Assembly: GCA_964016885.1 (NCBI GenBank)
Contig: OZ024742.1
Coordinates: forward strand, 5,270,001 to 5,334,000
Direction of reading: 5' to 3'
Source: Eledone cirrhosa
Taxonomy: Eukaryota
Length of the DNA: 64,000 nt
Shown one piece after another: positions 5,452 through 63,018 of this stretch (its first letter is position 1; every line of letters starts with the position of its first letter). The position numbers and the translations under genes were made by a program. The notes beneath the pieces are model-generated. The model saw only the letters and a program-made list of their open reading frames with translations, did not search any database and was not told the DNA's origin.

Positions 5452-5589
5452 TATATGAATTATAAGAATCAAAGAACTGTTCAAAACATTTTTATGCTTA
5501 CAACTGTTTCCTCCAAACCTCAGTTTGGAGGAAACAGTTGTAAGCATAAAAATGTTTTGAACAGTTCTTTGATTCTTATAATTCATATA
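5452..5589. repeat. Perfect palindrome (~67-bp arms, 4-nt loop) containing the 3' half of a hammerhead (GAAAC-agtt-GTA) on each arm
   Basis: Centre reads aactgtttcctccaaac-ctca-gtttggaggaaacagtt. Confidence 0.95.
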
Positions 5590-6709
5590 TATATATATAT
5601 ATATATATATATATATATATATATATGTGTGTGTGTAAGTGTGTGTATATGTGTGTGTGTGTATATATATATATATGTATATGTGTGTGTGTATATATGT
5701 GTGTATAAGTGTGTGTGTCTGTGTGTATATATGTTTATACACTGTCACACATATGTATGTGCCTTATATTAAGCATGCATATACTAACTATGTAAAAACT
5801 ATCTAGTTATAATAAACTAAATTAAAAAAACGTTTTAAAACACCCCTCCACACACATAAAGTTTAAAAGATAGCAATTATATAACCAAGAATATTTTATA
5901 TTTGAAACACTCTATATAGATTAATTTGTAACACTACCACAATATTATAACAACCCTTAATTTATCAACAACATTAATTACCTCCCTTTGTTATTAACCC
6001 CCTTTACAACTTCCTGTGTAAACTTATGAAATTAAGTAACCTAACGGTTTACCAACAGCTTAATAACGGTTAATACAAACCTTAGAAAAGATAATTTACA
6101 GATAAAAGATGCATAAGATAATATACCTACAATAACAACATGGCCAGTAATTCGGAGGAATTTACATTTAAAAAACAAACACCTATTGACTATAAACGAC
6201 TCAAAATAATCCCAGGGTTAATAGCTGTGAGTAACAAACAACACATGCACATAAATACGAACTACAACACAAAAACACTTAAATGAAAATCACATACCCA
6301 ACTCTATCTGGTGATTTACATTACACCTTACATAACAAATATCTACATTATCACCACATGCCTCTCTAACAAATTGCACACTATCTTAAATGTTTATAAC
6401 AAATATAACATGCTTTAACACCCCACACAAAATATGTTTATTTCAACTGCAGTATAACTCTTTCCTCATACATGCATTATTGACTGTATTGACTCCTGCA
6501 GTGTACACCAATTGTCCTTGCCTATAACTTCTTTCCCTGTGTTTTTTTGTTTGTGATTTTTTTTTGCTTGTGCCTTTTGCTTTTACTTATACCTATTACA
6601 CTTCCAACCAGTGCTGCTTGTAATTGTGTTATTTCAAGCGGAACATCTTTTTAACTCCTGAATCTCAACATGATGCCTTTGACACTAATAACAACTACGT
6701 ACCCTAAAT

Positions 6710-6756
6710 GTTCTAAATGACTACCAGACTTCTCTCTTGAAGAAACAATTGTCAGC
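6710..6756 (+). ncRNA. Degenerate hammerhead remnant
   Basis: gtt-CTAAATGA...GAAAC-aatt-GTC-agc. The 3' half is identical to the motif at 27104-27118; the 5' core is damaged. Confidence 0.4.
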
Positions 6757-7199
6757 TAATAAATGTTCGCAACGAAAATTTGATCGTTTTAACACTTTGT
6801 ATCTTGGTTCTGTAAAACACTTGAAAATTTGCATTGAACCTTTTGTCATACCGGTAACTGGCTAGTACTTAGTACTACCCTACATATTTATAGATATATC
6901 AAACATATATAAATATAAATATTACTATATATATATGTATATATATGTGCGTATATATGTATGTATATATATATGTGTATATGTATATATATGTGTATAT
7001 ATGTGTGTATATATGTATACCTATATCTATGTATATGTGAATGTATATATGTATGTATATATGTGTGTATATTTATGTATGTGTGTATATATATATATAC
7101 ATATATAAATATATATATATATATATATATATATATATATATATATATATATATATATAAATATATATATATATATATATATATATATATATATATATA

Positions 7200-8001
7200 C
7201 TAGCAGCAGTAAGTAGTGTTGCCTGGGTAGGTAAAATAATATCTGCTTTGATGAAAAGGTGTTGATCTTAGCGACTGCTTCTCGATGACTCATCTATGGC
7301 GACACACAGGCCATGTGGGGGAGGGTGCTGATGACCTCTATCACTGAAAAACGCGGGTGAGTGACGAAGGGGTATGCTGGGGTGGGAGTTTCGAATTTGA
7401 ACGAAATCGGTTGAAAAATGTGGGAGCTAGAGCCGAAAAGGCAGACATTTGAGCGAAAATGTGGTATTTTCGAATATTTAAGCGGCTGCCACGCCGTTCC
7501 TGAACAAAACATCCAAAATGTAAAGCCACTTTAAGACGTGAAATAATCAGATTTAGCGTAGTGTAAATTTGAACAAAGTAGTTTGATTAATGTGGGAGCT
7601 AGAGCCGAAAAGGTGGAAATTTGAGTCTAAAAGTGGTATTTTTGAATATTTAAGCGGCTGCTACGCCGTCTCTGAAAAGCAAATGCAAAATATAAAGCCA
7701 TTACAGGATGTGCAATGATAAATTCTGTTTTGCTTTAAAATTTGAATGAAATCGGTGGCAGAGTGTGGGAGCTAGAGCCAAAAATCTTAATTTTCGATAC
7801 CTAAAAGAAGGTGACCTCCCTATCGATTTTTATCTGCAGAATGACCCCGGAATAAAAGAAACGATATGTTGATTTATAGAAAACACTCCCCAATGACTAA
7901 TCTATGAGCCTGTAAAGTTTCATGAAAATCGGCCGTAAGATGTAGGCCCCTATAGGTAATACACAGACACACACACACACATACTTTATTTTATATACAG
8001 A
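7200..8001 (-). mobile_element. Non-autonomous Helitron-like element with three internal ~170-bp subrepeats
   Basis: Minus strand starts TCTGTATATAAAATAAAGTATGTGTG and ends CTAG, lying between A and T. The motif gtgggagctagagcc recurs at about 7420, 7592 and 7765. The 3' hairpin is degraded. Confidence 0.65.
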
Positions 8002-9010
8002 TACATATATATATGTGTATATATATATATATGTGTATATATATAAATATGTATATATATATGTATATATATATATAAATATGTATATATATGTGTATAT
8101 ATATATATATATGTATATATGTATGTATATATGTGTGTATATATATATGCATATATGTATAGATATATATGTATATATATATATATAGTATTAAGGATAC
8201 TATTTATGGTTATGTATATACTAAAACTTTTTATGTATATGTATATATGTATGTATATGTATATATATATGTATATATGTGTATATATATATATGTATAT
8301 ATAAATATGTATATGTGTATATATATATGTATGTATGTATGTATGTATGTATGTATGTATGTATGTATGTATGTATGTATGTATGTATGTATGTATATAT
8401 ATATGTATGTATATATATATATATGTATGTATGTATGTATATATATATATGTATGTATGTATGTATGTATATATATATATATGTATGTATATATGTATAT
8501 ATATATATGTATGTATATATATATATATATGTATGTATATATATATATATATGTATGTATGTATATATATATATATGTATGTATGTATGTATATATATAT
8601 ATATGTATGTATGTATGTATATATATATGTATGTATATATGTATATATATATATGTATGTATATATATATATGTATGTATATATATATATATGTATGTAT
8701 GTATATATATATATATATATATATGTATGTATATATATATATATATATATATATATATATATATATATATATATATATGTATATATATATATATATATAT
8801 AAATGTATGTATATATATATATATATATATATATATATATATATATATATATATGTATATATATATATATATGTATGTATATGTATATATATATATATAT
8901 ATAAATGTATGTATATATGTATATATATATATGTATGTATATATGTATATGTGTGTATATATGTATGTATATATGTATGTATATATGTATGTATATATAT
9001 ATATATGAAT
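8002..9010. repeat. Compound (TA)n/(TATG)n microsatellite
   Basis: Direct reading. Confidence 0.97.
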
Positions 9011-9292
9011 TAATATGTATGTGATGAAACACAGATACCAACACATGTGTATATATATTGCAAAAGAAAAATTTAGCCAGATTGAAGTATACTAATTATT
9101 ATACTACAGTTTGTCCATATCGATTTAAAATAATAAATCAACGAAGACGAACTGTATTGCCAAGAGGCTGTGATGTTTAGACACATTTAAATTTCAAAAT
9201 CAAACCTGTTCCGTAGATAAGTTTAAACTTTAAGATCCAAATATGTTTCGAGTTAAATAAGTGTAGGAATATCATGTCCTGCACTCCTCAGC

Positions 9293-61305: not shown

Positions 61306-61681
61306 AATGTAATCTGAGTTTTTCGAACAGTATTCGGTTCGTTTACAATTATGCAAACAAGCCTCATTTTAAAGCCATGCGTCAGTAGAATGAGCCCCTC
61401 ATTCTCATTCTTGCTCTTGTGTTGGCATGTAAACAGAACTGCAGACACTAATGTTTCTGGGTATTACCCTTCATCAGTACAGTTCACTGTTCACAGAGTA
61501 CTTATGAAGGGTAATACCCAGAAACATTAGTGTCTGCAGTTCTGTTTACATGCCAACACATGAGCAAGAATGAGAATGAGGGGCTCATTCTACTGACGCA
61601 TGGCTTTAAAATGAGGCTTGTTTGCATAATTGCAAACGAATCGAATATTATTATTAATATTCGAAAATTTCAGATTACATT
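61306..61681. repeat. ~375-bp palindrome centred near 61489, with a hammerhead on each arm
   Basis: atgcaaacaagcctcattttaaagccatgcgtcagtagaatgagcccctc pairs with gaggggctcattctactgacgcatggctttaaaatgaggcttgtttgcat. Confidence 0.95.
61436..61485 (-). ncRNA. Type I hammerhead ribozyme, canonical core; the mirror copy at 61498-61542 (+) has CTTATGA (G5U, likely inactive)
   Basis: Minus strand reads gaactgta-CTGATGA-agggtaataccca-GAAAC-attagt-GTC-tgcagttc. Confidence 0.9.
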
Positions 61682-61766
61682 TATTGTATTCAGCCATGTA
61701 GAGCGAAAATTTTATATATATATATATATGAAAAAGAACACAAGAGCGTCTACAACATCAAAAGAT

Positions 61767-61826
61767 TTTTATTGGCTTACAATGTTTCTTCCTTACGTAA
61801 CCGTAGGATTCGTCAGAGCTATAAAA
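61767..61826 (-). ncRNA. Type I hammerhead ribozyme, canonical core, near the 3' end of a ~740-bp insertion (about 61728-62465)
   Basis: Minus strand reads ttttatagct-CTGACGA-atcctacggttacgtaaggaa-GAAAC-att-GTA-agccaataaaa. Confidence 0.88.
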
Positions 61827-62516
61827 GGGGTTTGATTGGTGTTATGGACTCTACCAACCAAACATTCAAGAACAAAGAGTAAAGAGAGTAAAGAACAAAA
61901 GTAGGGGACGATAAGTCTAATTTTGGTGCGGGAGGGTAGGGTGTGGGTCCTTGTTTACTAGCTGCGGTAATATTCATTCCCGGGAGTCGAGTGGTTAGCT
62001 GAACCATATATGGGTGGCGTCGATAGTATGGTGCAGAGGGTGCGCATAGGCTACACAAACACAAAGGGCATACAATATATATATATATATAGCGGAGGAG
62101 AAGGTACATGAGGTAATTAGAAATGGAAAAATAGTAATAATAATAATCTATAATTAATAGTGTATAATAAGGCATGGGGAAGATTACACTATAATAAGGT
62201 ATAAAAGTAAGAATAAGGTAAAATATAAAGGAGGATAAGAGTGGAAATAATAAAGATAAAAAAATATATAGAGAATATATAAAGAAATATAAGCGAATAT
62301 TTGGAGGGGAAAACACAATGTAAAAAAACCGATTTTTTCAAATAATAATAAAAATATAATAATTATGGGAGGAGAAAACGGGATAGAGAAATATGATCAA
62401 GTGTGATTAGTTGAGAGAATATAAGATGATAATAGTTATGTCAAGGTTATACATCTTAATAATACATATATATATATATATATATATATATATATATATA
62501 TAGGGAATGAGTCAGG

Positions 62517-62607
62517 ACCCCGGCGCTGTGTTCCGGCCGTTTCGCTAGATCCGAACTAAACCAGTAGTATTAGGACGGTAGAGACGTTGCTGAACTTATC
62601 AAGGGGT
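62517..62607 (-). ncRNA. Degenerate hammerhead (U3-A8 core, triplet mutated to GCC); family of 14772 and 62885
   Basis: Minus strand reads acccc-TTGATAA-...-GAAAC-ggccggaacacagc-GCC-ggggt. Confidence 0.55.
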
Positions 62608-62804
62608 ACAGTCCATATATGCAATCAAAACACGGTAGAATTATCATATAAAGCAATCCTAAAAATTGTAGTTTTCTTGTTTGTCACAAGAAGTGTTCTA
62701 TGATTTTGGGATGTCATATACATGGTTAAATTCCTTCATAGCGGCGGGGGTGTGGTGGGGCTGAACTGGTCTGTAGAATAAAGGAAGAATATATATATAT
62801 ATAT

Positions 62805-63018
62805 ATAACAAAGGAAGTGTGGTAAGTAACCAGGTGGATAATAACGCACCAGAGTACTCGATACTATGGGTAGTAGAGTGGGTAATAGGAAAAGAGTCAG
62901 GACCCCGACGGCTGAGCTCCGGCCGTTTCGACAGCTAGTTCTGAACCGTTCAGAACTAGCTGTTGAAATGGCCGAAACGGCCGCAGCTCAGCTGTCGGGG
63001 TCCTGACTCTTTTCCTAT
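62805..63018 (-). mobile_element. Short pseudo-LTR-like insertion with fold-back palindrome 62885-63018 (centre 62947)
   Basis: Homologous to the reverse complement of 14772-14972. The arms carry GAAAC-ggcc...agcY-GTC-ggggtc, with a 9-nt duplication on the right arm. Confidence 0.85.

Follow-up and report, generated by a model that had tools for sequence, protein, structure and literature searches.

Why should short palindromic insertions of Penelope-like elements (PLEs) fold back at a hammerhead ribozyme? The question is raised by a 64-kb window of the Eledone cirrhosa genome (G000:C3:5270001-5334000, in a genome of 3.0 Gb; "the window" is this whole stretch), for which a preliminary description had reported eight long palindromes, five of them tied to a ribozyme, and had proposed that nascent complementary DNA (cDNA) stalls at ribozyme helices, snaps back and primes its own second strand. 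We favour a different reading, to which we give a probability of about 0.7: two cDNAs, each primed from one end of the target, run off the 5' end of the RNA and are joined, and the centre of the palindrome marks the front end of the RNA, not a helix at which synthesis stalled. The centres are likely to mark mostly the capped start of the RNA and sometimes the ribozyme cut.

The F2 element and the anatomy of its palindromes

Self-BLAST of the window returned nine local inverted repeats, and eight of these are the palindromes reported earlier (arms 83 to 98% alike; E of 3e-32 or better). Hammerhead parts are present in five of the eight, as had been claimed. Centres were placed by BLAST at 5520.5, 14304.5, 14832, ~61493 and ~62951, the last of these lying at 62947 by eye. 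The palindromes are asymmetric at their ends, with a family-specific tail on one arm and none on the other, and their outer ends run into (TA)n, as already described, or into mixed microsatellite. All eight are real head-to-head PLE insertions into (TA)n, in keeping with their earlier assignment to PLEs. The ninth repeat (20387-22107) was rejected as a fold-back; its halves are 79% alike and lie tail to tail about a (TA)n run. We then searched the genome with one arm each from seven of the eight palindromes, the one at 62885 being of the same family as that at 14772; the family labels F1 to F6 were coined in this analysis. The main family, F2, is represented in the window by the following features.

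14772..14892 (no strand): F2 palindrome (Hydra-like PLE), centre 14832 inside hammerhead loop 2, at an A that is the putative first base of the transcript
14850-14854: GAAAC of the F2 hammerhead, with the predicted cut at 14872/14873, on the + arm of the 14772 palindrome
14893..14969 (+): 77-nt F2 tail that separates the short 3' end from the long one; (TA)n next
62885..63018 (no strand): palindrome of an older F2 subfamily, centre 62947 at the equivalent place in loop 2; its + arm has a 9-nt local duplication
62808..62884 (-): F2 tail on the left arm of that palindrome
62502..62556 (-): decayed single-armed F2-type copy, terminating at the short 3' site

The insertions at 14772 and 62885, correctly recognized before as one family that folds back at the same place, belong together with the copy at 62502 to an autonomous PLE. 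At locus L176, three F2 units with open reading frames (ORFs) of ~785 amino acids lie 3,542 to 3,543 bp apart, the tandem arrangement expected of pseudo-long terminal repeats (pseudo-LTRs). The predicted protein P0001, a 786-amino-acid open frame, shows by eye the YRDD motif of reverse transcriptase (RT) and a C-terminal VIY..YIG motif of the GIY-YIG endonuclease; Pfam and PDB searches returned no match for P0001 or for two ORFs of the window. F2 combines the features of endonuclease-positive PLEs, namely an RT/GIY-YIG ORF, pseudo-LTR units, an inverted truncated copy with a tail, and a hammerhead. Marks of the Hydra clade read in P0001 are DKT for DKG, a CxCx5C linker, and CxxC and CxH around a conserved E and N; insertion into (TA)n is also as in that clade, and P0001 has RWR where the clade has RWK. 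Judged by its sequence, F2 can be filed as a Hydra-like PLE with a 3.54-kb unit, above the usual size for the clade.

Intact F2 copies carry a type I hammerhead in which stem II closes a 37-nt loop 2. The core is the U3-A8 variant described in PMC4209133, in a three-helix fold, and the ribozyme region folded no better than shuffled sequence (z 0.41). The cut position is predicted, and self-cleavage would account for arms that halt there (see below). The preliminary description had placed the centres at 5520, 14832 and 62947 on stem II. This holds for 5520, which is centred on a native stem II; the centres at 14832 and 62947 lie inside the 37-nt loop 2, and there the supposed stem II hairpin 5' of GAAAC is formed by the two arms of the palindrome, with no native 5' strand present.

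Genome-wide, a pattern that required exact 13-nt inner arms found at least 15,691 F2 palindromes centred in loop 2, of which 13,928 have up to 30 nt between the arms and 1,763 have 31 to 60 nt. A direct genome pattern for F2 fold-backs on native stem II returned 0, and none of 50 listed long-spacer palindromes retains the whole native loop. Copies with both strands of stem II gave 2,156 exact matches, with a pattern that misses some subfamilies. Two smaller classes were centred on stem III (213 palindromes, the whole native hairpin being kept in 19 of 50 listed) and on the predicted cut (151 palindromes). These patterns cover differing subfamilies, so that ratios between the counts are approximate; the cut-centred class comes to ~3% of the main class in its own subfamily, because ~17 of the 55 loci sampled below belong to that subfamily (by eye).

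We examined the anatomy of 55 consecutive F2 loci (L031-L045 and L136-L175), comprising the first 50 short-spacer palindromes and the 5 long-spacer ones in the same stretch. Of the 55, 52 pair an arm that terminates at the short 3' site with one that extends to the end of the tail, and both reach (TA)n. The sample holds 43 distinct junctions, and the two arms of a locus carry the same subfamily variants; the mirror arm is made anew at each insertion. The longer arm halts 9 to 10 nt into the 37-nt loop in 33 loci and never goes beyond 14 nt. Orientation could be assigned at 53 loci (2 were dropped); the arm without a tail is the longer at 19 of them and the tailed arm at 23, and the two are equal at 11 (P = 0.64 against an even split). 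Snap-back of a single cDNA cannot explain all of these, because a cDNA primed at the tail could only lengthen the tail arm, and the tail-less arm is the longer one in 19 of the 42 unequal junctions. The centres divide into 26 with at most 2 unpaired bases, which is too tight for a hairpin primer, and 29 with 3 or more. Many long F2 centres contain runs of A or T or short re-copies of an arm, as from untemplated tailing and repeated template jumps.

What fixes the F2 centre

The limit reached by F2 arms is an A; its surroundings resemble an initiator, and a TATA-like run lies 29 nt upstream of it. At junctions consisting of a full arm, one pyrimidine and the partner arm, the extra cDNA base was C in 66 of 71 and T in the other 5. 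Where arms ended one base before the hot-spot A, the extra base was C in 3 of 9 junctions and A in 6. The difference between the two positions is significant (Fisher P = 1e-4), the two patterns sharing only C.

The predicted cut forms a second limit. By eye, 50 listed junctions of this class comprised 19 blunt joins, 11 with one A or T, 10 with A-led inserts, 3 with C-led inserts and 7 that read past the cut. Thus, 43 of the 50 halt at the predicted cut, and a single added base was A or T in 11 and C or G in 1. In a downstream control, the longer arm ended at the same limit in 28 of 43, passed it in 1 and was shorter or unclear in 14. The build of a short arm and a tailed arm recurred in 20 of 20 cut-site loci hand-picked from the 50. 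The main site mostly gains C and the cut mostly A, as would be expected of a capped and an uncapped RNA end, respectively.

We propose the following route. A transcript begun in the pseudo-LTR would offer RT two internal start sites 60 to 350 nt from its 5' end. One target end would prime a cDNA at the short site, and the opposite end would prime another at the tail end; each cDNA would run off the capped end of the RNA, often copying the cap as an extra C; and the two cDNA 3' ends would be joined by short template jumps or through homology of 0 to 2 bases. If the 3' product of hammerhead self-cleavage served as template instead, each cDNA would end at the cut with an untemplated A added. A side route, taken in ~1-2%, would be fold-back on a native helix. 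On this view the ribozyme owes its closeness to the centre to a start site within or next to it, and not to any stalling of RT by its helices; its predicted cut also determines a minor centre, in a different way. In vitro, the protein of another PLE cuts and extends both target strands, and two internal RT start sites define the tail (PMC11167929). The accessible parts of PMC2377424 and PMC8557442 place the start of PLE transcripts in the pseudo-LTR, and those of PMC11702581 describe an extra G on the sense strand as a known cap mark of full-length L1 insertions.

The odds are somewhat better than even that the whole holds together, that is, that the junctions record the capped start to one base as well as self-cleavage in the germ line, that the symmetry of the arms reflects two-cDNA joining, and that the F2 promoter lies inside the ribozyme loop. 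If so, F2 mRNA starts with half a ribozyme, which alone would be unable to cut its own front end, and RNA 5' ends are preserved in short PLE palindromes as a fossil record.

A splice acceptor was considered as the boundary and rejected; an AG is present at that point in F2, but it is passed by arms, and F3 lacks one. In the sequencing runs X1 and X4, contig depth, when summed, is about ten times higher at the hot spot; depth cannot rank the parts, and it was not used. The 14832 centre is spanned, with 2 gaps, by two contigs of X1, and a 60-nt contig of X5 folds at the loop-2 site; none of these has 31 letters on both sides.

Other families and the rest of the window

The remaining palindromes of the window belong to five further families and to one other PLE.

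14094..14515 (no strand): F3 palindrome, centre at A 14303, 7 nt before the core at 14310-14316; the F3 hot spot
14431-14435: GAAAC of the F3 hammerhead in this palindrome, which has a long stem II and loop; predicted cut at 14442/14443
14516..14649 (+): F3 tail; (TA)n next
5452..5589 (no strand): F1 palindrome, centred on a native stem II hairpin with its loop at 5519-5522
5291..5451 (-): left-arm tail of F1; (TA)n next
61303..61684 (no strand): F4 palindrome, centre directly 5' of stem I of a compact type I hammerhead
61685..61713 (+): F4 tail, then (TA)n
19092..19194 (no strand): F5 palindrome, tail 19195-19249 on the + arm
18818..18998 (no strand): F6 palindrome, tail 18999-19035 on the + arm
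15642..15849 (no strand): inversion within the GIY-YIG coding region of another PLE

Three of these families have fixed limits of their own. The F3 hot spot, with 408 palindromes, is an A at the 5' edge of stem I that precedes the core by 7 nt; 12 of the top 30 F3 copies are hot-spot palindromes, and 5 single-armed copies begin at the same place (by eye). F5 has 284 palindromes, with a limit 131 nt 3' of the start of the hammerhead core and ~100 nt behind the cut, and F6 has a fixed 5' boundary, with no hammerhead of its own found upstream by pattern search. By eye, a G precedes the hot-spot A at junctions of F3 and, in 2 of 20 loci, of F6. Of 12 F3 palindromes near the predicted cut, stem III, which is self-complementary, is the centre of 7 and the cut itself of 4; F5 has 7 scattered ones in the corresponding region. 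The position of the hot spot relative to the ribozyme differs by family: in loop 2 in F2, before the core in F3, behind the cut in F5 and with no ribozyme found nearby in F6.

F1 and F4 behave differently from these. For F1, F3 and F4 only the 5' reach of aligned copies was used, automatic inversion flags being unreliable in AT-rich DNA. The 5' ends of F1 are scattered in 30 copies; the genome holds 1080 first-look F1 candidates and exactly 2 fold-backs on native stem II, including the one at 5520 in the window. The 5' ends of F4 are likewise scattered in 30 copies, with 3 exact palindromes near stem I and 0 further upstream. At locus L104:1-1750, F4 units of ~0.5 kb, each with a single hammerhead, are arrayed in tandem; the absence of a 5' hot spot from this family would follow if its template were circular or tandem. 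No linked RT/GIY-YIG ORF was found within 1.5 kb upstream of the few F1, F3 and F4 copies examined. What F1, F3, F4, F5 and F6 share with PLEs is the insertion build only.

These results sort the five ribozyme-linked palindromes of the preliminary description. The ones at 14305, 14832 and 62947 lie in fixed-end hot spots, that at 5520 is a rare helix fold-back and that at 61489 is a rare event. Centres at 14305 and 61489 had been assigned to stem I or the place just 5' of it; the position of 14305 is the F3 hot spot, and 61489 belongs to a family without one. A test for enrichment at stems I and II had been proposed as well, with a uniform spread of centres along the element as the contrary outcome. 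Centres are far from uniform and sharply clustered, but the clusters are not on stems I or II. Of the three ribozyme-free palindromes, two come from families, F5 and F6, that have hot spots of this sort; the centre of the 15642 palindrome, which has no ribozyme, reflects ordinary variable 5' truncation.

The window contains further insertions and repeats. A longer inverted insertion of another PLE occupies 2387-5004; its ends resemble hammerheads, and fragments of RT and GIY-YIG lie at 3206-4406. Nested inverted repeats at 25494-27558 (25494-25654 with 27398-27558, and 25787-25952 with 27009-27174) are likely more two-armed insertions. A retrozyme-like tandem family lies at 20387-22107 and 60712-61165, with compact hammerheads at 20914 and 60863, and two of its arrays join tail to tail at a (TA)n run. 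More compact hammerhead motifs, of other families, lie at 10731-10762 and 18544-18575. An Rfam search of the window gave 260 matches, and none of the 150 listed is a hammerhead; those listed are microRNA and small nucleolar RNA models below their gathering scores, on hairpins and microsatellites. The remaining sequence includes a 29-kb satellite at 31541-60712 (30-bp unit, 978 copies, higher-order repeats) that adjoins a PLE endonuclease fragment, a 44-copy tandem array of a G-rich 53-bp unit at 27993-30322, and, at 22492-23668, what we take to be a reverse-transcriptase fragment of an RTE-like long interspersed nuclear element.

Competing explanations and known systems

Several observations weigh against run-off at a fixed RNA end. 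The transcript start site was deduced from DNA alone, and the TATA-like run differs between F2 subfamilies and has no counterpart at -30 in F3 or F6. The hot-spot A forms a bulge in a weak predicted hairpin within loop 2, where a structural stall is possible. A control three bases earlier (reach 7) gave no match, and in the 55 loci the base after a full-reach arm was C in 8, G in 10 and T in 2 of 20, many of these being attributable to the partner arm. At the cut, the 19 blunt junctions of the 50 are ambiguous and could arise otherwise, because the CCGG there is self-complementary; only 4 of the 12 F3 palindromes near the cut lie at it, and the F5 junctions of that region are scattered. Finally, with an anole element in vitro, cleavage was not needed and no RNA ends were seen at the cut (PMC11167929).

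The mechanism first proposed, in which one nascent cDNA stalls at a ribozyme helix and self-primes its second strand so that the helix sets the centre, is improbable as the main route. It fits the weak hairpin predicted at the F2 hot spot, self-priming at PLE palindromic junctions has been proposed before (in the accessible parts of PMC3846280), and fold-backs on native helices do occur (213 on stem III in F2, 7 on stem III in F3 and 2 on stem II in F1), so that it stands as a minor route. However, native stem II, the helix next to the F2 centre, yields no fold-back in F2, the hot spots of F5 and F6 lie away from helices, and the stem III class could derive from later short-repeat deletion in an ordinary palindrome. 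The tail-less arm is too often the longer one, 26 centres are too tight, and the added base changes from C at the hot spot to A at the cut. A variant keeps the fixed RNA ends and lets either cDNA snap back at run-off, its new strand then annealing with the partner cDNA, so that joining is intramolecular. This would also yield symmetric arm reach, and it suits the 29 centres with 3 or more unpaired bases and the repeated re-copies of arms at the centre; it sits poorly with the 26 centres that have 0 to 2 unpaired bases and with the 30 of 50 listed cut-site junctions that have 0 to 1, and we regard it as no more probable than the helix stall.

Less probable still is the spread of one or a few master palindromes in the manner of miniature inverted-repeat transposable elements (MITEs), with centres trimmed later by cruciform repair. 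The very high copy number, the fixed ends and the recurrence of some junctions speak for such spread. However, the shared centre that descent from a master would leave is not seen among 43 distinct junctions in 55 loci; the same junction types occur across subfamilies, with each subfamily's own variants on both arms; and trimming would not halt at one base, add C or produce a second limit at the cut. Single-armed copies also begin at the same place, and the build is common to several families. Fold-back artefacts of sequencing or assembly can be all but dismissed. Palindromes beside microsatellites are prone to them, but the arms in the window differ by 2 to 17%, the tail is on one arm only (in 52 of the 55 F2 loci), centres are fixed per family and the two flanks differ; the preliminary description, too, had argued against an artefact at 14094 and 61306, from substitutions between the arms there.

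Run-off of two cDNAs thus remains our preferred account, and parts of it build on what is known. Inverted arms, tails and palindromic junctions, with self-priming as their proposed cause, appear in the accessible parts of PMC3846280 and PMC8557442. In the literature we consulted, largely titles and abstracts and without Arkhipova 2006, we found none that maps PLE palindrome centres to a capped start or a cut or that tests arm symmetry; the supplements of PMC11167929 and PMC8557442 may bear on this. The portions seen of an octopus repeat annotation paper and of a retrozyme preprint mention neither palindromes nor ribozymes. The origin of the tandem and inverted structures of PLEs and the role of the hammerhead are left open by PMC11167929 and by the accessible text of PMC8557442, and the thousands of independent junctions found here make both questions directly testable. 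The junctions predict start sites to the base, ribozyme-cut RNA as a template in vivo, and two-ended priming with end joining. They would also explain why internal priming near the 5' end of an mRNA floods a genome with short hairpin-forming insertions, which repeat finders may class as MITEs or microRNA precursors.

Endonuclease-positive PLE insertion units, as presented in the accessible parts of PMC3846280 and PMC8557442, consist of a pseudo-LTR, an adjoining inverted 5'-truncated copy and an optional tail. The likeness to the present insertions extends to the head-to-head arms, the tail on one arm, the palindromic junction, (TA)n and the hammerhead in the pseudo-LTR. By comparison, the short palindrome dominates here (15,691 against 2,156 exact matches with both stem II strands), the F2 tail is 77 nt where known tails are 30 to 40, and the junction maps to fixed RNA ends. 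The Hydra clade, according to the available text of PMC8557442, shares with F2 a single ORF with RT and C-terminal GIY-YIG, the DKT, CxCx5C, CxxC and CxH motifs, (TA)n and a hammerhead; F2 differs in its 3.54-kb unit (Hydra elements are generally below 3 kb) and in RWR for RWK. The anole Poseidon element in vitro (PMC11167929) is alike in that both target strands are cut and extended and two internal RT starts define the tail. In that work neither the 5' junction nor the joining of strands was followed, and no RNA ends were seen at the hammerhead cut, whereas here 151 genomic palindromes centre on the predicted cut.

A further parallel lies outside the PLEs, with L1. In the classic model of L1 twin priming, the two target ends prime on one RNA and the cDNAs are joined with little homology. 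Two-ended priming, low-homology joining and the copied cap (the last in the accessible parts of PMC11702581) would be common to both systems. In L1, however, the two cDNAs copy different stretches of the RNA, which gives an inversion; here they would copy the same stretch, which gives a palindrome.

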